IMG/VR virus record: IMGVR_UViG_3300036770_001342
Span: 1-64,000 of that record
Length of the DNA: 64,000 nucleotides
Strand: one strand, 5' to 3'
From: a virus
Shown: piece by piece, positions 17,727-46,052 of the stretch
Position numbering within the stretch: the stretch's first letter is position 1
How the letters are laid out: each line of letters opens with the position of its first letter
Made by a program: the position numbers and the translations under genes
Notes under the pieces: generated by a model
What the model saw: only the letters and a program-made list of their open reading frames with translations
Database searches by the model: none
Told to the model about the DNA's origin: nothing

Positions 17727-17732
17727 CAAAAT

Positions 17733-17951: not shown

Positions 17952-18326
17952 TTATTCTAAAGGTAGTTCAATAAGTTTGTTTTCACGATCAAGATATTTC
18001 ATTTCAATCTTAACAGGGTGAAATTCACGTAACGCTTCTACAACGTCATATGGGTCAAGTGGGCCGCAAGTATAAACATCTAGTTGGAGCAATGATGGCT
18101 TATCTTCATCCCAAACATGTAGTGCGATATGACTTGTCTCAATGATAGCGACAGCAGTTAGTCCACGATTGCCAACTACATCTAGGTACTTAGCAAAAGG
18201 ACCCATCATGACCTTCATGCCAATCTTATCAATAAGTCTGTTCATCCAATCGATTGCTAGTTGTTCTTCCTTTAGTGGATTACCAACTTCGGCACGAATA
18301 ATCAAGTGTTTATGTACTACAGCCAT
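17952..18326 (-). CDS. speD: S-adenosylmethionine decarboxylase proenzyme
   Basis: HKHLII, GLTAVAIIETSHIALHVW, LDVYTCG (pyruvoyl class). Confidence 0.88.
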   Translation of the reverse strand: MAVVHKHLIIRAEVGNPLKEEQLAIDWMNRLIDKIGMKVMMGPFAKYLDVVGNRGLTAVAIIETSHIALHVWDEDKPSLLQLDVYTCGPLDPYDVVEALREFHPVKIEMKYLDRENKLIELPLE

Positions 18327-21300
18327 TATTTGTATTTCCTATTGTAATATTCTTTCAACCAATCCCATTCATAACTTAATTTTAATTTATCGAAATCTCC
18401 ACCTACCATATCATAATATTCTACACCGTCTTTAGCACCTTGTAAACAATCCTGGGCATATTTGCCTTCTGCTACAGTTAGCCAAATTTTTAATCTATCA
18501 AAACTTACATCTTTATAGTCAGATTTTAATTTTATTACTTCTCTGAATGCAGTACGCCAAGTATTGTATGGATCCGTATTAAACTCTGCTACCCCGGATA
18601 ACATGTCTACTACAGTATGCGGATCATCTAACGTAAAATCTAATCCGCGTCCTTTGTTGTTTAATGTTAGTTTTTTATTATATGCGATCATTGCTTGGTG
18701 ACCATATACTAATCCATTTACTGGATTAATAGCATTGAAGATATAATGTTTGGGACTCTGTAGCCTGTCAGGTTGCCAGTTCCAATCAAAGTCATTGTTT
18801 ACCTTTAATTTAGCAAATACTGTAAACATCCACTGTGTTTGTGACGCTTCAGCAGCAGCCTGATATGCTTGAACACGACCATTGACACCATCTACTCGCA
18901 CAACCCTGTTTGGTAACCCCTTAGTTACCTTTAGTAGATGCTCATAGTTTTCATCAGATTGCGGTTCTCCGTTACTTAAAAAGACAATATCTAAAGGTTT
19001 AGAATTAGTAAGTCTACTGGCTTTAGCAATATACGGGTAGTCATACAATTGGTCTTGAATATAAAACTTAACTTGTTTAGGTACTACTATGACCGATCCG
19101 CCCGTAGTTAAAATCTCTATGTTCTTTGTATGGCTAGCCCATAAATTTAATGGCTCTCTGTAGTCAATCTGTATATCGTTATCTGAGTTCTTCATTACAG
19201 CATACGGGAAATCATATTCAATTTTCCACGAATTGCTATGGGTATCGTCATCAATAGTATAAATTGGCGGTGCAATTCTGTGAGCCTTGTTGTGTGTGAC
19301 ATAATTTACTTTATTAAAATCTTCCAAATAACTTAATTCACTTATTGCAGAACGCAATTTGTTTACATCTATTAAGAATGTGTCACCAAATTTTTGTCTA
19401 TCACTAGCAAAAACATGTAAATTTTCTTTAGCGAAAGGATCGCAGATATATGTAAAGTCAAAATTGTCGTAATTACAAACGCTACTACAAATCCAAATAT
19501 AATGTTCTTTTTTAGTTTCTAATGTATCTAATAATTTTTTAAATGTTGAAAGATAACTGTCAACATATTTTACAATTTTAATTTCTTTATTTGTTTTATT
19601 AGCAAGGTTTTCTAATATAATACTTGTTTCTTTATTTCCGTGATCGATCAAGTAAACATCATACAAACAATCTGTAGCCGTTGTAGTCTTATCTTTTACA
19701 AAATTTAAATTTTGTAGGTGCTCTATAATTTTTACATATTTTGTATCATCGTTAAAGGTACTACCGTTTATTAAGTATGTGTTTCCCCAATGACTCCACT
19801 GTGTACCAAATACATGCACCATTTGCATTTGCCAAGGACTTGGATAAAAATTAAATTCAAAGTTTGAATAATCGTATTCGCTGTTTACTACCCAAAATAA
19901 ATTTGTTTTTGATTTTCTAATACATCTAGAAATTGTTTCTACCCAAGAATTAAAGAATCTTGTTTTAATAATATTTGGAAATCTTTTTTGTAGTTCTTCA
20001 TATCTATGTTTACTATCAATGTTATTTCTATCTATAAAGAATATACTTAGATTTGTTTCCTTAATATAAACTTGCTGCTCAGTTACATAGTTATATTCAC
20101 GGTAACCTGACATGTACATAGGACCATTAATATAATATGTTTGTGTATCTTTAGCGTTTTCATTACCGAACACATTCACATGTCTAAAGTTTTGACTATT
20201 AGGTTTCCAACTAAAATCAAATCCTTCATATGTGAGATCGGGGTTTAAAGCCCAAAATTCTTCATCTGGATGCTGTTTAATCAAATCATCTAATGTAGTC
20301 TGTATATAATATTTAGGAATATCTTTTTTCTTTATCACTTGCGCATTAGTACGTGGCATGTAAACAATATCAACTGCATCGGGAACTGTATATCTAGGAC
20401 CATTATCTTCCCATTGATAAATTTGTGGAGGACTATGAGGATTAGGTCTCCAACTGAAATCAAAATTTTCTAAATCGTCAGCGTTGTAGACAGACCAAAG
20501 TTTCATATCGATTCCAGGAGTTGCAACCAGTGTATCTAAATATTTTCGTTCTGTTGCTCCTTCCATATGGTATTCAACGCTAGGCTCTGTGGCTGCGTCG
20601 TTCCATTTATTACCAAATACATAAATTAGTGAAGGTTCTCTAGGATCAGGAACCCAACTATAATCAAAATATTCTACTGGTATCAGATTTTTCCATAATC
20701 CATTATTGTAGTTTGCCTTTAAGTATGCTTTACTATCAAGATATTTGTATTCAGTAGCACCAGGTACATGATACTCTAAAGTATGTTGTAATTCGACTGG
20801 GTTCCATTGATTGCCGAACACATATATGTAGGGAGGATCGTTTGGGTTAGGTCTCCAAGTAAAGTCAAAGTTGTCAACTGGCAACAATACTTTCCAGTAC
20901 TCATGCACAGGACTTACTTTTGCTATAACATCCTGCACATAATTATATTCTGTGGCTCCTGGCACTTTATATAAAACAGTTTTTTCAACTTCAGCCGCAT
21001 TCCATTGATTACCGAATACGTAAATATATGGAGGTGCGCCGGGATTAGGACGCCAACTGAAATCAAATTCTTCGACGGGTACACAAATTTCCCAACACTC
21101 ACTCATTGGTAACGTTTTCGCTACCATATTGTCCATATACTTTCTAACTGGTTCTGAATCTAATCCTTCACAATAATATTCTATTGTGGGTTCAGTCTCC
21201 GCACTGTTGCTTTGATTTCCCCATACATAGATAAATGCAGGTTCGCTAGGATCCGGTCTCCAACTGAAATCAAAACTTGACTTGTCTACTGGTATCAATA

Positions 21301-24300
21301 TTTTCCATTTATCCCATTCAGGTTCAACTTCTAAATTGTTACCCATGTATTTGATTTCTGTCGCGCCCGGTGTATGATAAGTCACAGTTGGCTTCTTTTC
21401 ACCCGGTATATACTTATTACCCCATACATAAATGTATGCTGGCTCACGAGGATCAGGCATCCAAGTAAAATCAAAGTTGGCTGGTTGTTGAGTTATAGTC
21501 CAGTTGTCCCATTGCGGGACTATTTCTACATTGCCCATGTATTTCTTTTCAGTAGCACCAGGAACAATGTATTCTAGTGTGGGGCGTAACTCACCTTTTA
21601 CATGCTTATTACCCCATACGTAAATGAATGGTGGTTCATTAGGATTAGGACGCCAACTAAAGTCAAATGACTTATCAACAGGTAAATAGATTTTCCATCT
21701 ATCCCATTCTGGTTCAACATCAACATCGTTGCCCATGTATTTGACTTCTGTTGCACCTTCTACTGTATATGTAACCGTAGGTATTTTTTCTCCGGGTATA
21801 TATTTGTTACCCCATATATAGATATAAGGCTCTGACGTAGGATCAGGCACCCAACTATAATCAAAGTTTCGTGTCTTTTGATGCGTTTGCCATTTAGTAT
21901 AATCTGCTGTAACTTGTACTATGCCCATGAATTTCCTTTCAGTAGCACCTTCAACAATATATTCGATTGTAGGAGATACTTCAGCAGGTACGTGTTGATT
22001 ACCCCAAGTATAAATGTATGCTGGCTCTCTTGGATCTGGCATCCAAGTAAAATCAAAGTCTGTTACAGGATAATATATTTGATAATTCTTATAGTCAGGC
22101 TTTAGTGGAACTAATTCCTGCATATATTTCTTTTCAGTAGCCCCCGGTGTAATATATTCTAATGTAGGACGCAATTCAGCATTAACATATTTGTTGCCCC
22201 ATACATAAATGTATGCTGGCTCTCTTGGATCTGGACGCCATGTCATATCAAATAAATCTGTGTCAACATTATGATACGTTCTCCAACGATCCACTTGTAC
22301 AGTTACAGGCACAATGCCCATATATTTCTTTTCTATTGCGTTATCGCAATAATACTCAAGTGTAGGTTGTAACTCGCCGGCTACATATTTGTTGCCCCAT
22401 ACATAGATATATGCTGGCTCATTGGGATCTGGTCTCCAAGACAAATCAAATTTTTCTGTGTCTATACCCTCGTAAATCTTCCAACGATCTAGTTCAGGTA
22501 ACACATCTATATTACCCATGTACTTTGTTTCTGTGGCATTGGGTACTTTATAAATCAATGTAGGCTTTACTTCACCCGGTATGTATTTGTTGCCCCATAC
22601 ATAAATGTATGCCGGCTCTCTTGGATCTGGACGCCATGCTAGATCAAATTTTGTTTTATCAATTTCTTGTACGATTGTCCATCTATCTTTTTCCTGTATT
22701 ACAGGTACATGTTCTTGCATGTATTTCTTTTCTGTTGCCCCAGGACAATGATATTCTAATGTAGGCTGCAATTCAGCAGGTATATACTTATTACCCCATA
22801 TATAAATGTATGCAGGTTCTCTTGGATCAGGTCTCCAAGACAAATCAAATTTGTTTGTATCAATCTCTTGATGTATTACCCAACGTTCATATTGCGGTAA
22901 TACTTCAACATCTCCCATATATTTGTAATCTGTAGCACCCGAAACATGATATTCTAACGTTGGTTGCATTTCAACAGGTACAAACTTGTTACCCCATGCG
23001 TATATGTATGGCGGATCTTTAGGATTAGGTCTCCAAGCAAAATCAAATTTTGTTCTATCTATGTTTTGATTTTCAACCCAATTTTCAAAATTAGGTAATA
23101 ATGTCACAAGTTCACTCATGTACTTGTATTCGGTAGCGCCGGGTACAATATACTCTACAGTAGGACTAGTAGCGGCGTCAAAATATTTGTTACCCCAAGC
23201 ATAAATGTAAGGCGGACTAGTTGGGTCTGGTCTCCAACAAAAATCAAAACTAGATTTATCAATATTGTATAAAATATTCCAGCAATCATAGTTAGGTAAT
23301 ACGCCTACCAATTCAGTCATGTATTTCTTTTCAGTAGCACCGGGGCAGTGATATTCTAATGTAGATTGTACTTCTGCCGGTACATACTTATTGCCCCATA
23401 CATAAATGTATGCTGGCTCTCTTGGATCAGGTCTCCAACTTAAATCAAATGTTGATTTATCTATAGGTTGAACTTCTACCCAACGATCCGTTTCTGGCAA
23501 TACAGGAACATCGTTACCCATATACTTGCGCTCAGTTGATTCCGGACAATGATATTCTAAAGTTGGGTGTAATTCAGCCTCAACATATTTGTTACCCCAT
23601 ACATAGATATATGCAGGTTCTCTTGGATCTGGTCTCCAAGTAAGATCAAAATTATTTTTATCTATAGACTCAAAAATCTTCCAACAACTAGTTTTAGGCA
23701 AAACTGAAATTAATTCTGTCATGTATTTCTTTTCAGTCGCGCCTTGACAATGATATTCAAGTGTAGGTTGTAACTCAGCAGATATCCACTTATTACCCCA
23801 AACATAAATGTAAGGAGGACTACCCGGATCAGGTCTCCAACTAAAGTCAAAATTTTCTATTTCATCATAAACTTTAAAATTAGTTTTATCTATTGATAGT
23901 TTAACATGCCACAATGTGTGATCTATATATTTTCTTTCTGTTGCGCCGTCTACATGATATTCTATTGTAGGCATAACTTCAGCACTATAATGCTGATTAC
24001 CCCAAACATAAATGTAAGGGGGACTTTTAGGATCAGGGCGCCAGCGAAAATCAAATGTATTTTTATCTACAGACTCAACTATCTTCCACTTAGTATAGTC
24101 TGGCATCAACTCTACAAGCCCGTCTACATATTTGTAATCTGTAGCACCTTCAATTACATATTCTACTACTGCTTTATGTGTGGCAGGAAAATATCTACAT
24201 CCCCAAGCATAAATGTAAGGCGGACTAGTTGGGTCTGGATGCCAACTAAAATCAAAAGTAGTTTCGTCTATTAGTTCGTTAATTTTCCAATTATCTGTTT

Positions 24301-24619
24301 TTATATTTTTACGTCTAACTGGTTCAACGTCTGTTCTATAGACTAATACTTCGCTGTCGTTTTTACTACAAAGCCATGTACCGCTATCTTTCTGATGTTG
24401 ACTAGGCCAAATATTGTTATGATCTTGAGTCCATACTTGATCATCATCAAGAAAATCAAAATCGAAATCCCAGTCAAAGTTTGTATAGTCACAATATTCG
24501 TTGACTATCCAAAAATGTTCCGTAGTGGCTTGATTTCTAGCATCATCTAGATTTTTTGCAGGCTTCTCTCTTGGATGGACGTTTGGTTTTTGTCCGTAAT
24601 AAAAGACATCACGTAACAT
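18326..24619 (-). CDS. 2,097-aa tandem-repeat protein with C-terminal glycosyltransferase-like domains
   Basis: ~20 repeats; C-terminal LDIVFLSNGEP..RVDGVNG..AAAEAS..WRTAFREVIK resembles 42808..43761. Confidence 0.85.
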   Translation of the reverse strand: MLRDVFYYGQKPNVHPREKPAKNLDDARNQATTEHFWIVNEYCDYTNFDWDFDFDFLDDDQVWTQDHNNIWPSQHQKDSGTWLCSKNDSEVLVYRTDVEPVRRKNIKTDNWKINELIDETTFDFSWHPDPTSPPYIYAWGCRYFPATHKAVVEYVIEGATDYKYVDGLVELMPDYTKWKIVESVDKNTFDFRWRPDPKSPPYIYVWGNQHYSAEVMPTIEYHVDGATERKYIDHTLWHVKLSIDKTNFKVYDEIENFDFSWRPDPGSPPYIYVWGNKWISAELQPTLEYHCQGATEKKYMTELISVLPKTSCWKIFESIDKNNFDLTWRPDPREPAYIYVWGNKYVEAELHPTLEYHCPESTERKYMGNDVPVLPETDRWVEVQPIDKSTFDLSWRPDPREPAYIYVWGNKYVPAEVQSTLEYHCPGATEKKYMTELVGVLPNYDCWNILYNIDKSSFDFCWRPDPTSPPYIYAWGNKYFDAATSPTVEYIVPGATEYKYMSELVTLLPNFENWVENQNIDRTKFDFAWRPNPKDPPYIYAWGNKFVPVEMQPTLEYHVSGATDYKYMGDVEVLPQYERWVIHQEIDTNKFDLSWRPDPREPAYIYIWGNKYIPAELQPTLEYHCPGATEKKYMQEHVPVIQEKDRWTIVQEIDKTKFDLAWRPDPREPAYIYVWGNKYIPGEVKPTLIYKVPNATETKYMGNIDVLPELDRWKIYEGIDTEKFDLSWRPDPNEPAYIYVWGNKYVAGELQPTLEYYCDNAIEKKYMGIVPVTVQVDRWRTYHNVDTDLFDMTWRPDPREPAYIYVWGNKYVNAELRPTLEYITPGATEKKYMQELVPLKPDYKNYQIYYPVTDFDFTWMPDPREPAYIYTWGNQHVPAEVSPTIEYIVEGATERKFMGIVQVTADYTKWQTHQKTRNFDYSWVPDPTSEPYIYIWGNKYIPGEKIPTVTYTVEGATEVKYMGNDVDVEPEWDRWKIYLPVDKSFDFSWRPNPNEPPFIYVWGNKHVKGELRPTLEYIVPGATEKKYMGNVEIVPQWDNWTITQQPANFDFTWMPDPREPAYIYVWGNKYIPGEKKPTVTYHTPGATEIKYMGNNLEVEPEWDKWKILIPVDKSSFDFSWRPDPSEPAFIYVWGNQSNSAETEPTIEYYCEGLDSEPVRKYMDNMVAKTLPMSECWEICVPVEEFDFSWRPNPGAPPYIYVFGNQWNAAEVEKTVLYKVPGATEYNYVQDVIAKVSPVHEYWKVLLPVDNFDFTWRPNPNDPPYIYVFGNQWNPVELQHTLEYHVPGATEYKYLDSKAYLKANYNNGLWKNLIPVEYFDYSWVPDPREPSLIYVFGNKWNDAATEPSVEYHMEGATERKYLDTLVATPGIDMKLWSVYNADDLENFDFSWRPNPHSPPQIYQWEDNGPRYTVPDAVDIVYMPRTNAQVIKKKDIPKYYIQTTLDDLIKQHPDEEFWALNPDLTYEGFDFSWKPNSQNFRHVNVFGNENAKDTQTYYINGPMYMSGYREYNYVTEQQVYIKETNLSIFFIDRNNIDSKHRYEELQKRFPNIIKTRFFNSWVETISRCIRKSKTNLFWVVNSEYDYSNFEFNFYPSPWQMQMVHVFGTQWSHWGNTYLINGSTFNDDTKYVKIIEHLQNLNFVKDKTTTATDCLYDVYLIDHGNKETSIILENLANKTNKEIKIVKYVDSYLSTFKKLLDTLETKKEHYIWICSSVCNYDNFDFTYICDPFAKENLHVFASDRQKFGDTFLIDVNKLRSAISELSYLEDFNKVNYVTHNKAHRIAPPIYTIDDDTHSNSWKIEYDFPYAVMKNSDNDIQIDYREPLNLWASHTKNIEILTTGGSVIVVPKQVKFYIQDQLYDYPYIAKASRLTNSKPLDIVFLSNGEPQSDENYEHLLKVTKGLPNRVVRVDGVNGRVQAYQAAAEASQTQWMFTVFAKLKVNNDFDWNWQPDRLQSPKHYIFNAINPVNGLVYGHQAMIAYNKKLTLNNKGRGLDFTLDDPHTVVDMLSGVAEFNTDPYNTWRTAFREVIKLKSDYKDVSFDRLKIWLTVAEGKYAQDCLQGAKDGVEYYDMVGGDFDKLKLSYEWDWLKEYYNRKYK
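20400..24290 (-). repeat. Intragenic array of 19 full + 1 partial ~63-70-aa repeats (FDFSWRPDPxEPxYIYVWGNKY..PTLEYxxPGATExKY)
   Basis: Counted in the translation; recurring DNA words such as CCCCATACATAAATGTATGCTGGCTCTCTTGGATC; boundaries approximate. Confidence 0.9.
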
Positions 24620-24627
24620 GAAACTAC

Positions 24628-26112
24628 TTATGAAACAACTTTTAGATTATAAAGTTTCTCAAAACGGTCGGCATCACTGCGATCATTGACCATTGGCTCG
24701 CCGCGAATATTCAATGATGTATTGAGCAACATAGGACATCCTGTTTCTTGATACCAGGCTTCTAAGAGTTGTCGTATCCCAGATCCATCTTTAGGCACTG
24801 TCTGTACACGACTAGTATTGTCGAAATGGCTAATAGCAGGATAAAGGTCAGGATGCTTGCAACTAGCGATGACTTGCATATACCTACTATCAATCCAATT
24901 ACGAGGCATATCGAAATACTGATGTACATGCTCTTCCAGAATGACTGGTGCAAATGGTCTGAACTTTTGTCTGCGCTTGATTTCATTTACTTTGTCCTTA
25001 ATTTCAGGACCCCTCGGATCTGCTAGTAACGATCTATTGCCCAATGCGCGAGGTCCAAACTCTGCGCGACCGCTAGCAACACCTACCATCTTATTTTTAC
25101 TTAATTCTTTAATAACTTCTTTGACTGGATATGGGCCTTTAATATTTGTACCTAAAAAAGCATCTGTCCAGTTTAATTTCTTACCATAACCTAGTGCGGC
25201 TGCTCCTAGACTATTACCCGCATCACCCGGGTTAGGCATGATCCATATGTTCTTGTAGTATTTTCCTAACAATCTATTTGCAAGACAGTTTAATGCTACA
25301 CCGCCGCCATATACTAAATTACTACTATTTCCAATACGTTTGGCTCTCATCATAACTTTTTCAACAAGTGTTTCGCAAACTAATTGTGCGCTAGCAGCAA
25401 TGTCCATATCATCTGCTTTTGATAACCAGCCTTCTGAATCTAAACCCGTATGTAAATTATATTTAAATTCCAAATCTTCAAGATTTGACAAATAATGACT
25501 TGCCATACGATTAGCATATGTTGGTTTACCGTATGCTGCCATACCCATAAGTATGTACTCTTCATCCATTGGTCGTAGGCCCACACGCTGCGTCATAGCA
25601 CTATAGAACATACCTATGCTGTTAGGATATTTCTTACTCCACAATTTTGTATAATGTGCCGTACCGTTATTATCGTAACATGCATCCCATATACTGATAC
25701 AGTCCATTTCACCGATAGCATCTATGATGACTACTGTAGCATGATTGAAAGGACTTGTTTGAAATCCTGCGGCTGCGTGTGTCTTGTGATGCACATGTGT
25801 TTTGATCGGCATGTCGCCGAACTTTTCATATAAATCAGGACCTATAATTTGCTTGACACTCAATGGTCCAATAGGTTGACCTGCTCGAAATTGACGTATT
25901 GCCTTTAACCATGGTTTTTCATAATAATTTAGTTGGTAGTTGCTATTAACTACATATTTCATGGCTTCATCTATGATTCCTTCACATAGATCAGCATCAT
26001 GTTTCTTCTTGCTATAACGTTCACTATGTGCTGCAAACACTATATTGCCGGTATCACTAACAATACTCAATCCGGCATCATGAAAACCACAACTTAGCCC
26101 TATGTACATCAT
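24628..26112 (-). CDS. Carbamoyltransferase (NodU/CmcH/TobZ family); start moved to MMYIGLS
   Basis: GFHDAG, ERYSKKKH, HHKTHA, MGMAAYG, GGVALNC, GRAEFGPRALGNRS, FRPFAP, LLNTSLN. Confidence 0.95.
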   Translation of the reverse strand: MMYIGLSCGFHDAGLSIVSDTGNIVFAAHSERYSKKKHDADLCEGIIDEAMKYVVNSNYQLNYYEKPWLKAIRQFRAGQPIGPLSVKQIIGPDLYEKFGDMPIKTHVHHKTHAAAGFQTSPFNHATVVIIDAIGEMDCISIWDACYDNNGTAHYTKLWSKKYPNSIGMFYSAMTQRVGLRPMDEEYILMGMAAYGKPTYANRMASHYLSNLEDLEFKYNLHTGLDSEGWLSKADDMDIAASAQLVCETLVEKVMMRAKRIGNSSNLVYGGGVALNCLANRLLGKYYKNIWIMPNPGDAGNSLGAAALGYGKKLNWTDAFLGTNIKGPYPVKEVIKELSKNKMVGVASGRAEFGPRALGNRSLLADPRGPEIKDKVNEIKRRQKFRPFAPVILEEHVHQYFDMPRNWIDSRYMQVIASCKHPDLYPAISHFDNTSRVQTVPKDGSGIRQLLEAWYQETGCPMLLNTSLNIRGEPMVNDRSDADRFEKLYNLKVVS

Positions 26113-29085: not shown

Positions 29086-29201
29086 TTATAAATGAAGGGG
29101 TCTCTTTTACGCAATTCTTTTAATCTTTTGCGGTATCTAATCTCTCTGGTTATCTTACCAAAAAGTACATTAACAATAAAATTTTTAATTTTTTTAAACA
29201 T
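29082..29201 (-). CDS. 39-aa basic peptide (not in ORF track)
   Basis: MFKKIKNFIVNVLFGKITREIRYRKRLKELRKRDPFIYK; AGGAG RBS; overlaps both neighbours. Confidence 0.75.
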   Translation of the reverse strand: MFKKIKNFIVNVLFGKITREIRYRKRLKELRKRDPFIYK

Positions 29202-37291: not shown

Positions 37292-38475
37292 ACTAATCCA
37301 TTAAATTCAGGTAAAAAATTTACAATATTATGATTACGAACTTTATCCATCATACGTATAAAATCTAATGTTTGTTTATCGTTTGATGCGGTAGGTTCTC
37401 TGTTTAGTTCGTGTAAAAGTTTGATTTTATTATTTTTATTACTAAACGTATTATTATTTTTATAACTGGTTGAAAAGTCAGGTATTAGATTGATTTGTTC
37501 TTTTGCTAATTCTTTTAATTCATTTGGTAAATTACTTACGTGTAGAAAATTAGGACTGTGAACCATATTACATTCTATTTTTACATCATTAAAAAATTTA
37601 TAAAAATTGCCAACATTACATATATTGTAAACACTTACTGTTTGTGTGATGGATGTTTGAAATTGTTCATTTTTAATAATTTCCATATGTTTCATAACAG
37701 TGTCCCAATCGCTAGGATATCTGATATAATAGTTTCTTTGCTCTAAATCATCAATAGATAATTGCATTTTTACATGCTTAAACTCTTTTAATAACTCTAT
37801 GAATCGTTCCGGCATTAATGTTAGATTAATGTTGTATAATAATTCAATATTTTTTGCGCGTCCCATTTCAACTAATTTTTCTAAAAAGTAAAAATGTTCT
37901 TTGATTAATGTGGGTTCGCCGCCATTAATATAAATGAGTTCTAGTTGATCACTGTGTGTTAATAATTGATCATACCAATCTTTATTTCTATACCACTTAC
38001 TAGTAAATTCACTATAATTATAATGGTCGTTTTGTTGCAGTTCTGGTAATTTTTTTACATCTTCAATCCATTTGCTACTTGACATAGGATTACAAGTTAA
38101 ACACTTAATGTTACATACATTACCTAATCGTAATTCTACAAAGCGCAGAGGAAACTTTTCTTGTTTTAGGAACAAATTATTTACAAGAAATTTTTTATTT
38201 TCCTGCATTCTTTTACTTTCGATACCGTTTTCTTCATCTCTATAGCAACCCATGCATTCGACTGGTTTTTCACCATTTTTCATTTTACGTCTAATTTCAG
38301 TGAAACTATCACTATTCATAATTTCATCAATAGTATTGTCACTTAAATTTAATACGTCATTATTAGTTCTGGCAAAACAAACTCCATTTTCATAATTAGC
38401 AACGCAACAAGGACTTACTAACCCGTTAGGATGTGTCGCTAAGTGTGTCCAAGGTAATACGCATAGTGTTTTCAT
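37288..38475 (-). CDS. Radical SAM enzyme with N-terminal SPASM/twitch-like Cys domain
   Basis: CVLPW..PCC..CMGC; CNIKCLTC; GGEP. Confidence 0.9.
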   Translation of the reverse strand: MKTLCVLPWTHLATHPNGLVSPCCVANYENGVCFARTNNDVLNLSDNTIDEIMNSDSFTEIRRKMKNGEKPVECMGCYRDEENGIESKRMQENKKFLVNNLFLKQEKFPLRFVELRLGNVCNIKCLTCNPMSSSKWIEDVKKLPELQQNDHYNYSEFTSKWYRNKDWYDQLLTHSDQLELIYINGGEPTLIKEHFYFLEKLVEMGRAKNIELLYNINLTLMPERFIELLKEFKHVKMQLSIDDLEQRNYYIRYPSDWDTVMKHMEIIKNEQFQTSITQTVSVYNICNVGNFYKFFNDVKIECNMVHSPNFLHVSNLPNELKELAKEQINLIPDFSTSYKNNNTFSNKNNKIKLLHELNREPTASNDKQTLDFIRMMDKVRNHNIVNFLPEFNGLV

Positions 38476-39809
38476 ATATTTTTCCACCAATTTAAAAGTT
38501 CTGCATGTTCAGCAAATATATCTTCTATTGTTAAGCGTCCGTTGACTCCGTCTCCCCTATACTTTGCTATACGTGATAAATTTTCTTTACCTCTTTTCCA
38601 TCCATCTTTATAATCAGGATATGTTTCCATAAAAGTGGGTTTAGTTTTTAAGTCTTTTAAGGCTTCGACATATATATTTGTTTTAGGGGTAACTCTAGGC
38701 TCAATATAAGATAATATATCGTCTATTATATTTTCAAGTAATGGTTTAGGTATGCTGACAGGCGACATGATTACGCTGCTGTCAAATGAAAAAGTTGTTT
38801 TGATATATGTGGTAACGTCTAATTCTTTTGCAATATCGAATAGATTTTTAATTGAAAATAAGCCCGGTAATGTAATAGTTAAATCTAATACCATACCATG
38901 ATTACCATATTGCTCATTTAAAAATAATCCCTGTTTGAAGTTACTGTACCATTCATCCCATTCTATACCTGTTCGAACATATTCTACGATCTTGCCCGTG
39001 CCGTCAATACTAGCACAAAGATTAACATTTTTAAAGTGAGGCAATAAGTCATATAACTTAATACCTTTGTGTTCAATTCTACTTAGATTAGTATTATAGC
39101 GTATAACAACATTTTTGCTTTGACCGGTCTCAACTAGATATTTCATTATGTCCCAGTGTATTTCCCACATTAGTGGTTCGCCACCTACCCAATAAATTTC
39201 TTCTATAATACCTTTTTTGACACTATCCCATAATTCAGTTTCGGCAACTTCTTTTTGAAATTTGTTAAATTTTAACTGATTTTCTTTTTTATAAAAGGGT
39301 TCTAGTTCTTCGTTAATGTTGCCCATTAAACGTCTTTCTGTAGCCCAACTTGAACTTAACAAGTCACCGCACATACGACATTTAAAATTACATAAATTAC
39401 TAATTCTATAATCATAACTGATAGGTTCTAGGGTAGTATGTCCAGTCTCGTCAGTATTTTCAAAAATTTCTTCAATCTTATGCGGGAAAAGTGTGTTTGT
39501 AAAATAACTTTTATAGGTGTACAAATTTAGTATGTTCTCGTTACATACTTGGCATTGTGGTAACATTTCACCCGCCATCATTTTCTTACGTATATCTTTC
39601 ATGTAATCACTGTTCCAGTGATCTTTTAATGTTACCGGGTTAAAGTAAGCGTTATCATCTGGATTGTCGCTGTCAATATATTGCTTTATATATGTGGCCT
39701 TTTCTCGGCTGGCACAGCATAAACGTCTTTCTCCTTGCGGAGAAAGATACGTATGCGTCCAAGGAGCAACGCAAAATGATTTATTGCCATCACTCGGCTT
39801 TATTTTCAT
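38472..39809 (-). CDS. Radical SAM enzyme with N-terminal SPASM/twitch-like Cys domain
   Basis: CVAPW..LCC..CQVC; CNFKCRMC; GGEP; SIDG. Confidence 0.9.
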   Translation of the reverse strand: MKIKPSDGNKSFCVAPWTHTYLSPQGERRLCCASREKATYIKQYIDSDNPDDNAYFNPVTLKDHWNSDYMKDIRKKMMAGEMLPQCQVCNENILNLYTYKSYFTNTLFPHKIEEIFENTDETGHTTLEPISYDYRISNLCNFKCRMCGDLLSSSWATERRLMGNINEELEPFYKKENQLKFNKFQKEVAETELWDSVKKGIIEEIYWVGGEPLMWEIHWDIMKYLVETGQSKNVVIRYNTNLSRIEHKGIKLYDLLPHFKNVNLCASIDGTGKIVEYVRTGIEWDEWYSNFKQGLFLNEQYGNHGMVLDLTITLPGLFSIKNLFDIAKELDVTTYIKTTFSFDSSVIMSPVSIPKPLLENIIDDILSYIEPRVTPKTNIYVEALKDLKTKPTFMETYPDYKDGWKRGKENLSRIAKYRGDGVNGRLTIEDIFAEHAELLNWWKNI

Positions 39810-41331
39810 TGTTTAATTCCTGCTCATATTCTTGGCTGCCAGGATTAGCACTTTTTGGTTTTAAGACCCAACCTTCTTTCTCTGCTCTTTCTTTTAATTC
39901 ACTCACATAAGGCATTTGCTTACTGCTATCTCCATCAACTAATATTTCAATCATATTAGTATTAGTTTCGGGGATACTATCATACCATTCTACTAGTGTA
40001 GGGAATGCCTTTTTAAAATCTTTACCTCGTCTCTTATCATACTGCTGATGGAAAGTTTTAAAATCTCTTACTCTACTTTCAATGCTTGAGACATGATTAT
40101 GTCCCTGTTCAACTTCACGCAAATAAGCAATCAATCTGATAATGCTATCTTTTTCTATTTCAGCCAACAATGTGTTATCTGAATTTACTTTTAACCATTC
40201 TTCCAATGCATTGGCTCTTTCTTGTCTGATTTCTTGCGGCAGCGTAGTAGGGCTTTGAAAACTTGGAAAACGTAGTATGTTAAAACTCATCATGCAATGA
40301 TGTTTACCAAATTTTGCTTTCAATTTCAACATTTCATCCATAAATTCACAAATTGAAAATAAGCACAATGCATTGATTGTCATCATAATATTTGATGTTC
40401 TTACATTTCCGAACTCAATTGTGTCATTAAGATTTTTTAACCAATCATCCCAAACTAGTCCGTCACGTATGTACTCTGCTTGTATACCAAAGGCTTCGCA
40501 ACTAGTATACAAATCAAAATGTTTAAATGAATGTGACGCTTGATATAATCTTTTAACTAAAGCATTGTTACCTAAATTTGAATTTACAGCAAATCGTACA
40601 TTACAATCAGGATGTTCTAGCCACCAATCTACTAGTTTCCAAAAACTAGGACTCATAGTTGCTTCACCGCCGGTTACTCGCAATTCTTTTAAACTATGCT
40701 GTAGATCGTTTTCCCACCACTTCCAAAACGCTACGATATACGGACTGTCTGTATTTTCAATACCATATGGCTGTGCCCATGAACCGTCTTGTTTAAATGC
40801 TGCGGCACCGTCGCTAACTAGATTTTGATAGGGGCCATCCATTTTAATATCGTTTTGCCATTTAGTACTAAAACTAGCATTGCAATAACTGCAGGCAAAA
40901 TTACACAATGCATCGAAAGCAATTTCTAAGGTTTGAAGGTCTACATCCTCAGTGCTTCCATACTGAGTAACTGCTTTCATTAAGTCATCTTCTTTATAGA
41001 TAACCGATTTGTAAATTCTATCACTAACCTTATCTTTACCTAATCCTTCAATCTTCCAGCAATAATCACATTCTTTAGGTTTTTCACCTACGAGCATTTG
41101 CTGTCTTACTAATTTTTTATAAGAGGTATTATGCAAAGCCTTATAACTTTTTTCAAGTTCGTCCAATGGGATCTTATGTGCCGGAGGGTGATGGCAACTG
41201 GCAGTAGTACCGTTACCTAACCACACTGTGGCATTATACCATTTAGCACCGCAAAAACTTTCACTCTTACTATTAAGTACGCGGTCTCTATATTCTACAT
41301 ACGATTCATCTGGTTTTTTAAATAATGCCAT
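39790..41331 (-). CDS. Radical SAM enzyme with N-terminal twitch-like domain
   Basis: CGAKW..SCHHP..CDYCW; CNFACSYC; GGEA. Confidence 0.9.
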   Translation of the reverse strand: MALFKKPDESYVEYRDRVLNSKSESFCGAKWYNATVWLGNGTTASCHHPPAHKIPLDELEKSYKALHNTSYKKLVRQQMLVGEKPKECDYCWKIEGLGKDKVSDRIYKSVIYKEDDLMKAVTQYGSTEDVDLQTLEIAFDALCNFACSYCNASFSTKWQNDIKMDGPYQNLVSDGAAAFKQDGSWAQPYGIENTDSPYIVAFWKWWENDLQHSLKELRVTGGEATMSPSFWKLVDWWLEHPDCNVRFAVNSNLGNNALVKRLYQASHSFKHFDLYTSCEAFGIQAEYIRDGLVWDDWLKNLNDTIEFGNVRTSNIMMTINALCLFSICEFMDEMLKLKAKFGKHHCMMSFNILRFPSFQSPTTLPQEIRQERANALEEWLKVNSDNTLLAEIEKDSIIRLIAYLREVEQGHNHVSSIESRVRDFKTFHQQYDKRRGKDFKKAFPTLVEWYDSIPETNTNMIEILVDGDSSKQMPYVSELKERAEKEGWVLKPKSANPGSQEYEQELNNENKAE

Positions 41332-41333
41332 AA

Positions 41334-42776
41334 TTATTTACCTGCTTCTTTTTTACATTCACTAAAGAATGTTTCATATTCGGGGAATGTTTCAACAAAA
41401 TTAGTATTCTTTCTACGATCATATTCTACAATGTACTCATAAAATTGTGATCGTAACAATTTACGTTTTTCTGGATTATGTTCAAGAGCATTCATTTCAT
41501 CTCTGACTACATAATACAATCTTTCAATTCGATTAATTTCATAATCATAAAAACCATTGCCGCACATAGGAGGCCAAAACAATACGTGAGGATTCTTATA
41601 TGCATGGCTTACACAATCTTCTAACACAGATAGAAATTCTTTTGGTAGTATCCATGCTGCCAAGAATTCTGGCCAACGAATATATGCTACGTCAAGTGAT
41701 ACTGGATGTTTGCGTACTGGTTGAACAGTGTATTTTAGTTTCATATCAATGACATCATTCATCATTTGTTTAAAACTAGTCAAACCCAAGGCATTAAACG
41801 CTGACATAATAGTTAAATGACTGTCGGGTATTTCTGCTAATACTCTATGGCAATTCTTTAACCAATAATCGTAATTTAAACCATAACGTATATACTCTGC
41901 TTTTTTACCATGACCTTCATTGCTGGTATACAACTTGAACATTTTGACACATTTTCTTTCTTGTATGATTTTCATCTTTTTCAAGAAACGTTCCATCAAC
42001 TCTTCCGGAACACCTAAATTACTATTGATGTTGAACTCTAATTGTGGTTGCGGGTTTTCAATTAGATAGTCAAGTACGCGATAAACTTGCTTGCTCATTA
42101 ATGGCTCACCGCCAGTAATTCTAAAAACTGACAGGTGTTTTACCGCATTTGGCCACCATTCCCAAAATGCATTAATATAGGGATTATCTTCGTGTACGGG
42201 TATAGGAAATTGTCCTACTTGTTTCAAGTAATCTAAACTATGCAGTGTGATGTTAGGTAGCACATAGGGGCCATGTTCTTGAATTTCTTGCTTCCATGTA
42301 GTGCTGAAAGCAGGACTACAGTACATACATTTGAAATTACACAATGTATCAAAACTAACTTCTAAGTAACTGGGATAAACATTTGCATCCCATGGCATAT
42401 TGGCTACGCGCTCAAGATGAGGTCTTGCCCAATTATCTGCACTTTTTGTAATTCTGTCACTATAAACTGTGTTATCACCTTTAGCATCTTCTGTGCGCCA
42501 GCAGTAATCACACTCTTTAGGGCGCTTGCCCTCTAACATCATTTTTCTTTGTTCTTTTTTGAATTTGGTGTTATGTAGCGCGTGAGGCGATATTGCTAGT
42601 TCTTCCAAGGGAATTTTATGCGGACTTGGATGGTGACAACTATGAGTTAATCCTGCACCCAAATGTAATGATACTTGATTCCATTTTGCCACACAAAAAC
42701 TAGGACTGACTTTATCTAATGCTTCCTTAGTTTCTTTAAATTGGTCGGATTTTTCGTACTGAGTACTTGTTGACAT
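41334..42776 (-). CDS. Radical SAM enzyme with N-terminal twitch-like domain
   Basis: CVAKW..SCHHP..CDYCW; CNFKCMYC; GGEP. Confidence 0.9.
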   Translation of the reverse strand: MSTSTQYEKSDQFKETKEALDKVSPSFCVAKWNQVSLHLGAGLTHSCHHPSPHKIPLEELAISPHALHNTKFKKEQRKMMLEGKRPKECDYCWRTEDAKGDNTVYSDRITKSADNWARPHLERVANMPWDANVYPSYLEVSFDTLCNFKCMYCSPAFSTTWKQEIQEHGPYVLPNITLHSLDYLKQVGQFPIPVHEDNPYINAFWEWWPNAVKHLSVFRITGGEPLMSKQVYRVLDYLIENPQPQLEFNINSNLGVPEELMERFLKKMKIIQERKCVKMFKLYTSNEGHGKKAEYIRYGLNYDYWLKNCHRVLAEIPDSHLTIMSAFNALGLTSFKQMMNDVIDMKLKYTVQPVRKHPVSLDVAYIRWPEFLAAWILPKEFLSVLEDCVSHAYKNPHVLFWPPMCGNGFYDYEINRIERLYYVVRDEMNALEHNPEKRKLLRSQFYEYIVEYDRRKNTNFVETFPEYETFFSECKKEAGK

Positions 42777-42793
42777 CGTTCACCTATGTCAAC

Positions 42794-42799
42794 TATTTA
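42794..42799 (-). promoter_or_regulatory. Late-type promoter core TAAATA ahead of the radical SAM/glycan genes
   Basis: CTAAATA in a 31-nt intergenic gap. Confidence 0.55.
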
Positions 42800-42807
42800 G
42801 AGGGATT

Positions 42808-43761
42808 TTACCATCCTTCTATCTTTCTTATAATATCAATTTCTCTTACTAATGGACCCATATTGTACTTGTCGTGATTATAATGTCGTTTAAAAAATTT
42901 ACTTTGTTCTGGATCTAACACAGACATAGGCAAATCTAGTTTATCTCGCAAAATATTTCCTATAATATCAATCTCTGTTTTAGGATCTTTACTTTTAAAT
43001 TCTTCCCATAGTATAGAAAAATTATCAAACCACATCACATCTTTATGATCCCAAGTTGATAGCATTGTCATATATGTACCCAATCTAGCACCATATATTG
43101 CCCACAAGCCGTTTTCAACGTCACTGCCTACATTATGCCATATAGTTAAATGATTAAAGTTTCTTCCCGGGACGCGATTTTTAAATTCATCTACACTGGG
43201 TTTACAACCCCTCTCCAAGCACATTTTAACGCCTTCACGAAATCCTGCACGCCATGCTTGAAAAGGTGTATAATTGGGATAAGTTATGCTGTAGCAATCA
43301 TACATATGCCAGTATAGATTATCTTTAGTGCCGTCCATACAGAAATCTACTTGAGTATGGTCGCTGCCGTCAGTATTTTCATGAGTTTTCATGTTCATGA
43401 CATAATCTTTTGTCCATGAACTCATCCCACCATTGCCATAACGCAATCCATTAATGTTATTAATTGCTTTCCATCTGAATTGTGCTAGGTGGGCGTTAGC
43501 AGGTGCATCTGTAAAATCTAATTGTAGGTTAAAGAAACTCTCTTCGGGCATATTATCGCCATCAATAAGAATAAAGCGTTCTGTGTCGCTGGCTTCAGCA
43601 GCGGCTTTATGCGCTGCATCACTACCCTTTACGCCGTCAACACGTTTAGCATAAGGAACCATATTCTTAATTTTAAGCCAAAATTCTTCTTTTTGCGGTT
43701 CGTCGTAACTTAAATAAATGCAGTCTAAATCAGCGATATCAATTATTTCATCAGAGTTCAT
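42808..43761 (-). CDS. GT-A-fold glycosyltransferase-like protein
   Basis: YLSYDEP, RVDGVKGSDAAHKAAA, LIDGD (DxD), AWRAGFREGVK. Confidence 0.65.
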   Translation of the reverse strand: MNSDEIIDIADLDCIYLSYDEPQKEEFWLKIKNMVPYAKRVDGVKGSDAAHKAAAEASDTERFILIDGDNMPEESFFNLQLDFTDAPANAHLAQFRWKAINNINGLRYGNGGMSSWTKDYVMNMKTHENTDGSDHTQVDFCMDGTKDNLYWHMYDCYSITYPNYTPFQAWRAGFREGVKMCLERGCKPSVDEFKNRVPGRNFNHLTIWHNVGSDVENGLWAIYGARLGTYMTMLSTWDHKDVMWFDNFSILWEEFKSKDPKTEIDIIGNILRDKLDLPMSVLDPEQSKFFKRHYNHDKYNMGPLVREIDIIRKIEGW

Positions 43762-44107
43762 ATGTTGATAACTTCCATTGTTTACTATTTACATCGTCTA
43801 GAGTAGTCAGTATACTAATATCATCTTTAGCGCAACTTATCCCGTTACTATCTGGTTTATATTTGGATATAATTGCTCCCGAATTTAGTTTAACTAATTT
43901 ACCGTTTTGAACTTTTAAATCATATCTACATTCTGCATAAGTCTGTGCATCAATAATTAAAAAATTACCTTCGGGTTTATCGCAAGTATAAAATAAAATT
44001 TTTCCATTTTCATCGTAATATAATCGAAATTGTGTAGGTTCATACTGAACCTCTTCTGCTATTAGGTATTCTATACCGTCAATTTCTACAACTTTTAAAC
44101 GTTCCAT
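43751..44107 (-). CDS. Hypothetical protein
   Basis: 118 aa, overlaps both neighbours. Confidence 0.7.
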   Translation of the reverse strand: MERLKVVEIDGIEYLIAEEVQYEPTQFRLYYDENGKILFYTCDKPEGNFLIIDAQTYAECRYDLKVQNGKLVKLNSGAIISKYKPDSNGISCAKDDISILTTLDDVNSKQWKLSTYEL

Positions 44108-44895
44108 GCCAAACTCAACTCATTACTAAATTTTTTAACATGATAGTGAAAAGGATATTTTTGCGGTATAGTATTAATTCTTAAAGTATGGGATAATATT
44201 TCGTACACTAATTCATTAGTCCAATCTTCAGTTTTTAACAGATTGATCATTTGTTTCATATGTACCATACTCATTTCTGTAAATGTAGGCATGGTAGTTT
44301 TTTCAGTGCCTATAATATGACAAGCAATAGCGTATACCCAATCAGTAGTTGCTTCTTCGTCTATTTTACATTTTAATATTTTTCTAAATTCATCCCAATT
44401 TTGAAAAATTATTTTAACCATTTCAAAAAATTGTTTGGCCGTATCTGACTTCTTAAAATAGGTTAAAGCATTATAACAATCAGGCAATTTGTTTTGATCA
44501 ATAAACGTTCTATAATACCTAACATCGCTAATATCTTGTTTAAAATTTCTAATCGTGGTTGATACAACTACATCTTGTTGCGAAAGTATGTCCCACCAGT
44601 ATTCTATAGAAGATGGTATATACATGTCTGCTTCAAGTTTAATAGTGTGGTCATAGGGACTTGCTTCATACACTTGCCAGTCATTAATTAATTTCCATTG
44701 GCTGTTAGGTGCTTGGTCTCCATATGGTAATGCAATAACTTTATCGAAAAAATTACTATGATCTACATCGTCTGTTATTAATGATATATTAGATGAAGGC
44801 ATTACTTTTCTTATACTGTGTGCCAAAATTTCAGCACATTTGACATAATCTACTGATTCAGTATTTTGAGCAAGTATTACGTATCCTCTACTCAT
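44095..44895 (-). CDS. GT8-like glycosyltransferase
   Basis: RGYVILA, SPYDHTIKLEAD, VHMK, FHYH. Confidence 0.65.
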   Translation of the reverse strand: MSRGYVILAQNTESVDYVKCAEILAHSIRKVMPSSNISLITDDVDHSNFFDKVIALPYGDQAPNSQWKLINDWQVYEASPYDHTIKLEADMYIPSSIEYWWDILSQQDVVVSTTIRNFKQDISDVRYYRTFIDQNKLPDCYNALTYFKKSDTAKQFFEMVKIIFQNWDEFRKILKCKIDEEATTDWVYAIACHIIGTEKTTMPTFTEMSMVHMKQMINLLKTEDWTNELVYEILSHTLRINTIPQKYPFHYHVKKFSNELSLAWNV

Positions 44896-45698
44896 TTGAT
44901 AAGATCCATAAAAATATCTTTATTAATAATATGAAAATCCATATCTTTTACAACAATATATTCCTTTTTAATTTTATTACGCAACCATTTATCATAAACA
45001 ATAGTATATTCAGTATTATATAACTCATCGTTGTTCTTATAGACAAAAGTTTTTGGTCCAATATGCATTAAATTCCAAGGTATTATATCATTGCTAATAT
45101 CTATATGCCCATTTACGATACGTAGTGCTAATGTAAGACCGTAATCATTTCTATACGTATCAGTAGAAAACTTATGAATATTAGCGTAGTGTTCATAATT
45201 TTCTTGAACCATTTTTAAACATTCAAAAATTTGTTTAACTTTTTGTGTTTTTTTAAATGCAACTACAGTAGCCCAAACTGTAGGCAAATTAATACCTTGT
45301 CCTAAATACTCTTCTTTTGTATAGTCATCCATTAAAAAAGATATTGTTTTATGGCAGACAAAATCATTCATGATTTCAAATGTTTTGTTAAGCCTATCAC
45401 TATTAACTACATAATCAACATCTAGCAGTAATGTTTCATCGTATGGACTTAATTCATAACTGCGATAGCGCCCTTTATTTAACCAAACTCTACCCTGTAA
45501 TTGATTGTTGTTATCGCTATCTATAACTATTACTTTATCAAATGTGTTATCTGTAACTGTAGATAATGACGCTTTGTCTGTAATTAATGTTGATGGTAAT
45601 TTTAAAAAATGACTTACACGCTTTGCTGTAAACTCTGCCATTTTAACATAATTATATTCCGGTGAGTTGAAAGCAAACAACAATACACCTCTTGTCAT
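44892..45698 (-). CDS. GT8-like glycosyltransferase; paralog of 44095..44895
   Basis: RGVLLFA, SPYDETLLLDVD (DxD), YRND, FHIINK. Confidence 0.65.
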   Translation of the reverse strand: MTRGVLLFAFNSPEYNYVKMAEFTAKRVSHFLKLPSTLITDKASLSTVTDNTFDKVIVIDSDNNNQLQGRVWLNKGRYRSYELSPYDETLLLDVDYVVNSDRLNKTFEIMNDFVCHKTISFLMDDYTKEEYLGQGINLPTVWATVVAFKKTQKVKQIFECLKMVQENYEHYANIHKFSTDTYRNDYGLTLALRIVNGHIDISNDIIPWNLMHIGPKTFVYKNNDELYNTEYTIVYDKWLRNKIKKEYIVVKDMDFHIINKDIFMDLIK

Positions 45699-46003
45699 CT
45701 TTTAGTCTCTAATAGTTTATATTCTTTATAATATTCTTGCATAACTGTTTCATAAACAGTTTTTAATTTCTCAAGTAGTTGCAGTCTATCAACTTCGACT
45801 GGATTGTTATGTGTATCTATTAATACTACTTTATCACTAGTAAAAGATTGTAGTGTGGCTATAGTGGTGGCATCTGCTTTCCACAATCCGTTTTGTTCGG
45901 CAATTAAAATTTTACTGCTATATTTTTCACGCAAGTATTCTTTTGCTGAATTATGACTAAATCTCGCTTTTGCTTCCGATAGTAAGGTTTGGACGTCCAT
46001 CAT
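45695..46003 (-). CDS. Hypothetical protein
   Basis: 102 aa; GAGG RBS; TAAATA at 46019-46024. Confidence 0.75.
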   Translation of the reverse strand: MMDVQTLLSEAKARFSHNSAKEYLREKYSSKILIAEQNGLWKADATTIATLQSFTSDKVVLIDTHNNPVEVDRLQLLEKLKTVYETVMQEYYKEYKLLETKR

Positions 46004-46052
46004 TATGCCTCGTCCAAGTATTTAGATATGGGATTTTTACCTAATAAATTTA

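Follow-up and report, generated by a model that had tools for sequence, protein, structure and literature searches.

A late-type operon beside the fibre genes of a jumbo phage, with a predicted cytoplasmic pathway for building and editing a glycan

Glycans made by viruses have been described in giant viruses of algae and amoebae and in a few actinobacteriophages, and we know of no phage that makes them by a pathway of at least 25 genes with several radical S-adenosylmethionine (SAM) steps. Here we describe such a candidate, a minus-strand operon (g01 to g25, positions 17952-46003) on a 64,000-nt stretch of viral DNA, hereafter the window, which is the first 64 kb of the 106.9-kb IMG/VR record IMGVR_UViG_3300036770_001342 (rated 31% complete). 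An earlier note, made from the letters of the window, had proposed a late, capsule-like pathway coating the virion with a heavily tailored glycan. With moderate confidence, we read the locus as a late operon that makes and edits an unusual glycan wholly in the host cytoplasm, most likely on virion proteins.

The closest described counterparts are the virion glycosylation systems of PBCV-1 (A64R), Mimivirus (fibril clusters), and mycobacteriophages (capsid and tail tube; Freeman et al. 2023, as cited in PMC12619734). They resemble the operon in their soluble cytoplasmic transferases, their sugar-nucleotide genes, and their clade-variable gene sets beside structural genes, and A64R is among the fold matches of transferase g05. 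The operon, known here from genes alone, differs in that, at 25 genes and 28 kb, it is far larger for a phage and holds a radical SAM quartet, a carbamoyltransferase, and a 2097-residue pseudo-transferase. Bacterial O-antigen and capsule loci likewise place conserved flanks around swappable sugar-nucleotide, transferase, and decoration genes of low guanine-plus-cytosine (GC) content, but the operon has no lipid-carrier primer, flippase, or membrane protein. Numerous radical SAM genes are also carried by the T4-like Campylobacter phages CP220 and CPt10, 11-12 in all, of which five belong to an exchangeable module without an assigned role (Timms et al. 2010, PMC2853527). That work describes neither transferases nor a link to fibre genes, and these phages are not close relatives, because at E ≤ 1e-3 a search with g09 matched none of the Campylobacter phages.

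Among cultured phages, the core transferase was found only in the Ralstonia jumbo phage RsoM2USA (343.8 kb), in which ORF345-355, all annotated as hypothetical, follow the order of the operon core: a fibre gene, g01, a GT8-like pair, a small gene, a g05 homologue (40% identity), a g06-type radical SAM gene (38%), and a gene resembling the C-terminal part of g24. This version is minimal, with about 8-11 genes, no repeat expansion, and its carbamoyltransferase elsewhere in the genome. A megablast comparison of 20 kb with cultured phages found no match, and relatives among them exist at the protein level only. The 'moraphages' were considered and set aside as a counterpart: these belong to another lineage, with genomes up to 307 kb and Bacteroidota hosts, and the source does not cover the island described here (PMC12619734).

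The operon comprises 25 co-oriented open reading frames (ORFs) of at least 100 amino acids in the ORF listing, where about 26 had been noted earlier, and these are tightly packed as noted: 20 of the 24 junctions overlap by 1-61 nt, and the other four are gaps of 2, 8, 31, and 108 nt. Co-orientation is not distinctive, because the minus strand holds nearly all genes between about 4 kb and 80 kb of the record. None of the 25 proteins has a membrane helix (no 19-residue hydrophobic window above 1.6). The priming transferases PF02397 (Bac_transf) and PF00953 (Glycos_transf_4) were absent from the fragment and from four near-complete relatives, with positive controls, as was Wzx (PF01943). A Wzy-type polymerase, at which no search was aimed, is unlikely in the operon given the absent membrane helices. 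With neither membrane proteins in the operon nor primer or Wzx genes, the pathway would be cytoplasmic, and a cytoplasmic glycan-building and tailoring pathway is well supported. The cytoplasmic acceptor favoured by the earlier note is thereby strengthened, whereas the term 'capsule-like', taken to mean a polymer built on a lipid and then exported, is not supported.

The genomic setting may link this pathway to the virion. Two promoter boxes and three upstream genes frame the 5′ part of the operon:

46053-48623, minus strand: three late-box genes upstream of the operon, encoding a 204-residue core protein, a fibre protein with an intramolecular-chaperone domain, and, at 46053-47003, a fibre-like protein with 27% Ser+Thr.
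46019-46025, minus strand: late-type promoter box CTAAATA before g01, 15 nt ahead of its ATG.
42794-42800, minus strand: late-type promoter box CTAAATA before g06, the first radical SAM gene, 17 nt ahead of its ATG.

Both entry motifs therefore stand where the earlier note had placed them. Its position for the operon, directly after tail and baseplate genes, holds as to adjacency with tail genes, but the genes immediately upstream are fibre-like, not baseplate genes. Immediately upstream of the fibre genes lies a single ORF of 6437 amino acids (window 48791-64000, continuing to 68104 of the record). It is weakly similar to RsoM2USA ORF361 (E 3e-10), the giant neighbour of the minimal island in that phage, which has been assigned to a >288-kDa virion protein band (PMC8504454).

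Conservation of this arrangement was examined in 80 related phage loci with 10-kb flanks and in five near-complete genomes (333-361 kb, 92-100% complete). The upstream trio and g01-g05 are present in 73-80 of the 80 loci, with a median identity of 74% for g05, and the synteny check places the transferase module behind fibre genes in all 80 of them and in RsoM2USA. In each of the 54 loci that extend 9 kb or more downstream of g05, the 10 kb after this gene carry between one and seven radical SAM genes of the N-terminal-twitch (N-twitch) type, most often four, the nearest starting no more than 800 nt from g05 in 45 of these loci. In the five near-complete relatives, the stretch from g05 to a conserved ATPase gene spans 24-38 kb and is closed by a g24 orthologue (1380-2298 amino acids) in every case, preceded directly by a g23 orthologue of 65-70% identity in four. 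The middle differs in each of the five genomes and holds from 2 to 13 N-twitch radical SAMs; the largest array here, in relative G002 (L084-L085, 54.5-83 kb), packs 13 such genes into roughly 22 kb that separate g05 from the carbamoyltransferase gene. A census of 40 other island proteins of these relatives recovered 8 further radical SAMs (two with B12 domains), proteins of dehydrogenase, epimerase, DegT aminotransferase, and methyltransferase type, and many without a family hit. A swappable middle is thus framed by conserved ends, one formed by fibre genes, transferase module, and first radical SAM, the other by carbamoyltransferase and repeat protein, and in this respect the island behaves like a phage serotype locus.

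Two of the relatives, G003 and G005, have arrays of 6-9 translationally coupled small ORFs of 70-107 amino acids (L087:15071-17113 and L090:2895-5101, respectively), which end in F-x-LRW[SG] and, as an insertion, directly follow the first radical SAM gene. The same family occurs in other arrays (e.g. G002 at 124-127 kb and G005 at 72-74 kb). A role as precursors of peptides that are made by ribosomes and modified after translation (RiPPs) was considered and rejected, a profile finding copies at no fewer than four unrelated genome places; no small ORF with this ending was found in the present genome.

The timing of the operon would follow from its promoter boxes. HTAAATA is strongly depleted in the window (41 sites versus 125 ± 11 in shuffles), and in the 107-kb record the intergenic [AC]TAAATA copies lie 5-57 nt before gene starts, including those of fibre and baseplate-region genes. 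Depletion and placement together mean that [AC]TAAATA behaves as a real promoter element, like the late box of T4-type phages. Sigma70-like matches are no commoner than in shuffles (75 versus 75.9; 90 versus 83.4), in line with the earlier remark that no sigma70 promoter was noticed within the operon. The lateness claimed for the operon is accordingly borne out as far as late-type boxes go, the timing itself being read from the boxes only.

Several further signals touch on transcription. An additional [AC]TAAATA candidate lies at 27304, 22 nt before the dehydrogenase gene g22. Nine minus-strand HTAAATA copies are clustered at window 29463-35819 (g12-g19, within the low-GC variable block), a pattern that fits either foreign DNA from which the motif has yet to be cleared or late starts inside the operon. 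Outside the operon, two genes at window 15362-17761 follow a site (TTGACA, 17 nt, TG-TATCAT, at 17761-17733) that is the best sigma70-like match in the region. The second of them (15362-16483) is a paralogue of g20 whose relatives sit inside the glycan islands of G003 and G005, and part of the sugar gene set may thus be expressed earlier and separately from the operon.

Promoter type and gene neighbourhood also bear on the possibility that the transferases and tailoring enzymes decorate bases of the phage DNA. DNA is a frequent target of phage glycosyltransferases (general knowledge, discussed in PMC12619734), and a single thymidylate-synthase-family gene is present, at window 6297-7193; it encodes a full-length family member (365 bits), kept in all five genomes searched, and Pfam alone cannot separate thymidylate synthase from base hydroxymethylase. 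However, this gene belongs to a separate nucleotide-metabolism block about 11 kb past the end of the operon, the promoter boxes are of late rather than early or middle type, and the operon has no DNA kinase or base hydroxymethylase and is linked to fibre genes instead. We regard DNA hypermodification as very unlikely.

For attachment to virion proteins, the favourable points are the late boxes, the fibre linkage shared by the lake lineage and RsoM2USA at about 40% identity, the Ser+Thr-rich fibre-like protein, the chaperone-domain fibre, and the virion band of ORF361. As judged from these genomic signals, such attachment is plausible. The glycan-coated virion of the earlier note thus gains from fibre linkage in two distant phage lineages and from the late boxes, with the acceptor kept at the level of plausibility.

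The sugar-transferring part of the operon is encoded by its first five genes and by g20:

45695-46003, minus strand: g01, conserved 102-residue small protein; 80 of 80 related loci, median identity 57%; RsoM2USA ORF354 is a weak positional match; without family hit.
44892-45698, minus strand: g02, predicted GT8-like nucleotide-diphospho-sugar transferase with D[TV]D; 80 of 80 loci; no Pfam hit.
44095-44895, minus strand: g03, GT8-like paralogue of g02 with EAD replacing DxD; phrog_1903.
43751-44107, minus strand: g04, conserved 118-residue small protein; 80 of 80 loci, median identity 46%; without family hit.
42808-43761, minus strand: g05, predicted glycosyltransferase of GT-A fold from an uncatalogued family, with DGD; AlphaFold2 model; no Pfam hit.
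27982-29085, minus strand: g20, putative phage-specific glycosyltransferase with a weak GT10 lead; 25 of 80 loci, often in several copies.

The g05 assignment comes from its predicted structure (predicted local distance difference test score, pLDDT, 93), in which residues 3-182 form a GT-A domain and a helical domain comes after it. In a VIA search, the top rows (Z 9.3-8.0, mostly 139-149 residues aligned) are almost all GT-A glycosyltransferases, and nucleotidyltransferases of the same fold rank lower; Foldseek matches with probabilities of 0.95-1.0 include RmlT, PBCV-1 A64R, TarP, and cellulose synthase, and further fold matches are STIV A197 and SunS, which like A64R are protein- or capsid-glycosylating enzymes, plus TarS. 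The DxD motif is placed after the fourth strand of the fold; its DGD form is kept in 81 of 81 close relatives, and in 50 distant members conservation of D67 and D69 reaches at least 90%. Clustering at 50% leaves 1165 representatives of the family, some of them, as read from their sequences, fused to a GT-B-like or methyltransferase-like part. No Pfam family was found for g05, and only one of the 50 family members has a marginal Glyco_tranf_2_3 match (E 0.004).

The products of g02 and g03 are paralogues of 30% identity with a GT8-like N-terminus, in which D[TV]D and EAD, respectively, are invariant (81 sequences). Neither has a profile match to Glyco_transf_8 or Nucleotid_trans, g02 has no Pfam hit even at E ≤ 5, and the nearest named ESM Atlas clusters of g03 are Nucleotid_trans/Glyco_transf_8 (score 0.95-0.96, a lead only). 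In the same atlas, g20 belongs to a viral family with GT10 at only 0.80 and some relatives fused to an epimerase. PDB sequence searches with g05, g09, and g20 returned nothing usable.

These fold matches raise the question of whether the enzymes instead remodel the host envelope, acting on host lipid-linked polymers before export and producing a late surface change, e.g. against superinfection or against progeny sticking to debris. The teichoic-acid-modifying enzymes RmlT, TarP, and TarS among the g05 matches would suit such a role, and so would the closest non-phage relatives of the radical SAMs, which lie in bacterial glycan loci at about 50% identity and suggest exchange with host-type loci. 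Yet neither a primer nor a flippase nor any membrane protein is supplied by the phage, a lytic T4-like phage using late-type boxes would have little time left for export, and the linkage to fibre genes is kept in distant lineages. We consider host-envelope remodelling distinctly improbable.

Besides the GT8-like pair, a second transferase family has an altered-site copy, at the distal end of the operon, followed by the last gene:

18326-24619, minus strand: g24, 2097-residue repeat protein with a C-terminal, DxD-less paralogue of g05, from repeat and paralogue comparison.
17952-18326, minus strand: g25, pyruvoyl-type S-adenosylmethionine decarboxylase (PF02675, 59.9 bits); ATGA overlap with the g24 stop.

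The C-terminal domain of g24 is 32% identical to g05 and has FAK or WGK in place of DGD in six of six genomes. Ahead of it lie about 20 tandem units of 64-69 residues, which resemble the hairpin after the DxD site (F-D-[FW]-x-W-x-P-D ... Y-I-[FYW] in both). RsoM2USA ORF348, directly after the g06-type radical SAM gene, represents an un-expanded form of this C-terminal domain. In a third, more distant lineage, detected on short contigs only by scans with two distant g05 relatives, a g05-like gene is followed by a DxD-less paralogue and, 6-7 kb downstream, by an N-twitch radical SAM (L103:6119-7506, 13840-15105; L101). As both transferase families thus consist of one canonical and one altered-site copy, their sequences suggest catalytic enzymes paired with non-catalytic partners. 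By comparison, g25 is absent from the g24-adjacent position in all five relatives and found elsewhere in two of them; it is probably a passenger in the operon, and could serve polyamine supply or the use of decarboxylated SAM beside four SAM-consuming enzymes.

Those four enzymes are encoded consecutively after g05:

41334-42776, minus strand: g06, N-twitch radical SAM of the conserved 'first' type; NF033640, 311.3 bits.
39790-41331, minus strand: g07, N-twitch radical SAM; NF033640, 310 bits; own orthogroup including Bdellovibrionota, support 99.
38472-39809, minus strand: g08, N-twitch radical SAM; NF033640, 321.1 bits; own orthogroup, support 100.
37288-38490, minus strand: g09, N-twitch radical SAM; NF033640, 343.5 bits; own orthogroup, support 99.

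All four match NF033640 (N_Twi_rSAM) over their full length and above its curated cut-off of 170 bits, and share with the family a Cys-rich twitch/SPASM region N-terminal to the CxxxCxxC core. In g09, the SPASM match (residues 10-83) stands ahead of Radical_SAM (122-280), and a 16-sequence alignment shows the cluster cysteines C126, C130, and C133 to be invariant, together with C10, C28, C29, C79, and C82. A quick maximum-likelihood tree of 56 proteins, arbitrarily rooted, assigns g06, g07, g08, and g09 to four separate groups, the g06 group (support 92) including RsoM2USA gp349 and the first-position genes of the relatives. Each group holds phage and bacterial members, and all four types co-occur in the window, in relative G002, and in three bacterial contigs; they therefore represent an old co-inherited set and not recent duplicates. 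While NF033640 itself is a catalogue entry, here four old orthogroups are found together in phage and Bdellovibrionota loci. The N-twitch type has more than 1100 homologues. We found no functional study of the N-twitch family, or of radical SAMs in capsule loci, in the literature.

The bacterial members derive from an alignment scan, which yielded six contigs of metagenome-assembled genomes (Bdellovibrionota and one Porticoccaceae) with 2-8 tandem N-twitch genes each; a bacterial genome scan with g09 as single protein had no match. One contig carries a cellular Obg GTPase and is thus bacterial. On the two contigs whose neighbourhoods were examined, the adjacent genes encode a GT2 and two NAD-epimerase/dehydratases with a carbamoyltransferase homologue (L092), an NTP-transferase (L095), and a GDPD. 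The glycan-building and tailoring character ascribed to the operon is reinforced by this occurrence of the same radical SAM family in bacterial sugar loci, and sugars would be the substrates of the operon enzymes. By the same comparison, the four appear to form an old quartet common to phage and Bdellovibrionota glycan loci, a combination new here.

A different assignment is that the radical SAMs act mainly on protein, epimerizing, cross-linking, or methylating a virion protein or g24, with sugars secondary. The g09 model (pLDDT 86) has the RiPP or protein maturases SkfB, CteB, and anSME among its best structural matches, relatives carry B12-type radical SAMs and methyltransferases, and g24 offers its roughly 20 near-identical units. 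However, viperin, BlsE, and MoaA match the model about equally, and the fold search singles out no nearest enzyme from which a substrate could be read. On the two bacterial contigs, moreover, the arrays stand among sugar-nucleotide enzymes and a GT2 with no precursor peptide seen, and the small ORFs beside radical SAMs in two relatives belong to the genome-wide family described above, which has no member in this genome. Direct modification of protein or peptide as the main function is, in our estimate, unlikely.

Between the quartet and the repeat protein lies the variable middle, which would supply and decorate the sugars, with the conserved g23 at its end (g20 is given above):

36473-37291, minus strand: g10, putative enzyme of the C-x-[ST]-G-Q-x-R family (phrog_13607); 25% paralogue of g11; 10 of 80 loci.
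35740-36522, minus strand: g11, paralogue of g10; weak DUF7796.
35003-35770, minus strand: g12, DUF6071 protein (35.9 bits, cut-off 27) with N-terminal GDS motif, SGNH-like by motif.
34122-35033, minus strand: g13, DUF6071 protein (38.7 bits) with GDS motif; 28% paralogue of g12.
33334-34125, minus strand: g14, GDS-motif protein; motif read from sequence, no family match.
32904-33344, minus strand: g15, cupin of mannose-6-phosphate isomerase type (PF01050, 32.2 bits, cut-off 23.6).
31382-32932, minus strand: g16, fused nucleotidyltransferase and APH/choline-kinase-like kinase (NTP_transf_3 and APH).
30676-31398, minus strand: g17, shikimate-dehydrogenase-like NAD(P) oxidoreductase (Shikimate_dh_N, 34.2 bits; aroE models all under cut-off).
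30200-30682, minus strand: g18, HAD sugar-phosphate phosphatase of KdsC/YrbI type (62.5 bits, under the cut-off of 107).
29194-30219, minus strand: g19, GatZ/KbaZ-like protein (tagatose-bisphosphate aldolase subunit family; PF08013, 43.7 bits; PDB 2fiq, E 7e-5).
27278-27985, minus strand: g21, GDS-motif protein; weak DUF1574.
26109-27281, minus strand: g22, predicted NDP-sugar 6-dehydrogenase of the UDP-Glc/GDP-Man dehydrogenase family (PF00984, 61.8 bits; PF03721, 56.4 bits).
24628-26169, minus strand: g23, NodU/CmcH-type carbamoyltransferase at the conserved island end (Carbam_trans_C, 166.1 bits; Carbam_trans_N, 114.3 bits; each exceeds its cut-off).

Every claim of the earlier note on gene content was recovered by profiles or models, the SGNH-like type at the level of candidates. 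The g10-g21 block has the lowest GC content (0.306 versus 0.347 for the window) and most of the internal late-box copies of the operon, which fits recent acquisition; its g13-g19 part recurs in 6-8 of the 80 loci, a count limited by the 10-kb flanks. The fused g16 has 745 homologues, whose source names are cytidylyltransferase-like and choline- or thiamine-kinase-like. Synthesis of nucleoside-diphosphate (NDP) heptose uses an isomerase, a kinase, a phosphatase, and a nucleotidyltransferase, and g15-g19 could form an NDP-heptose-like route or a route to a CDP-polyol (aldolase, phosphatase, reductase, kinase, nucleotidyltransferase). In g22, the N-terminal NAD and central domains exceed their cut-offs, the C-terminal UDP-binding domain scores 21.3 against a cut-off of 30, and the NCBIfam NDP-sugDHase model 148.6 against 189.8; copies in relatives are 70-84% identical. 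The N-terminal GDS block makes g12, g13, g14, and g21 SGNH-like candidates, and g23 is not NodU itself, because the NodU equivalog model gives 127.6 against a cut-off of 1000.

This enzyme inventory could equally be imagined to yield a free small molecule, an aminoglycoside- or nucleoside-like glycoside made late and attached to no macromolecule. Carbamoyltransferase, twitch radical SAM, NDP-sugar dehydrogenase, and transferases co-occur in aminoglycoside and nucleoside-antibiotic pathways (general knowledge), and BlsE is one of the g09 fold matches. However, no exporter or resistance gene was seen in the operon, and the hypervariable content and fibre linkage fit a surface structure better; a free product has, in our view, only a slight chance of being correct.

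Returning to a cytoplasmic glycan on virion proteins, we propose the following scheme, whose order of steps is inferred. The operon would be transcribed late in a T4-like freshwater jumbo phage of about 340 kb, and the fibre proteins encoded just upstream would be the first candidates for the acceptor. The products of g15-g19 (aldolase/epimerase-like, reductase, phosphatase, kinase, nucleotidyltransferase, isomerase) would supply activated building blocks and g22 an NDP-uronic acid; g02/g03, g05, and g20 would then attach and extend sugars, on which g06-g09 would make radical edits. The GDS-motif proteins and g23 would add or remove acyl and carbamoyl groups, and g24, with its DxD-less g05 copy and about 20 hairpin copies, would act as a non-catalytic partner or scaffold.

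Several points weigh against this scheme. Most transferase assignments come from fold, motifs, or language-model leads, and no Pfam or CAZy-type profile matches g02, g03, g05, or g20. Most cassette enzymes score under NCBIfam cut-offs, and their profiles do not give the identity of the sugar made. The radical SAM model fits peptide maturases as well, so a protein or other substrate is possible, and the linkage to fibre genes could reflect shared late transcription alone. There are soluble GT-A enzymes, phage TarP for one, whose substrates are lipid-linked polymers of the host, and with such precedents the lack of exporters is compatible with a host-surface target.

A further-reaching version of the same reading can be offered tentatively. 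The island may be a hypervariable serotype locus of the phage particle, in which a conserved priming module and the radical SAM quartet would carry out undescribed sugar or sugar-protein chemistry, giving carbamoylated, radically edited fibre glycans, with gene exchange with surface-glycan loci of Bdellovibrionota and g24 as a multivalent template.

What is new here is the radical SAM quartet held in common with Bdellovibrionota, the pairing of canonical with DxD-less transferases, and the occurrence of a minimal version in a cultured phage. If the product is indeed placed on fibres, host range and immune evasion in phages would vary at a new level, set by an exchangeable locus that hundreds of jumbo phages from lakes and the sea carry. 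The N-terminal-twitch radical SAM family would likewise gain its first functional handle, and the minimal version carried by cultured RsoM2USA makes the question directly testable.

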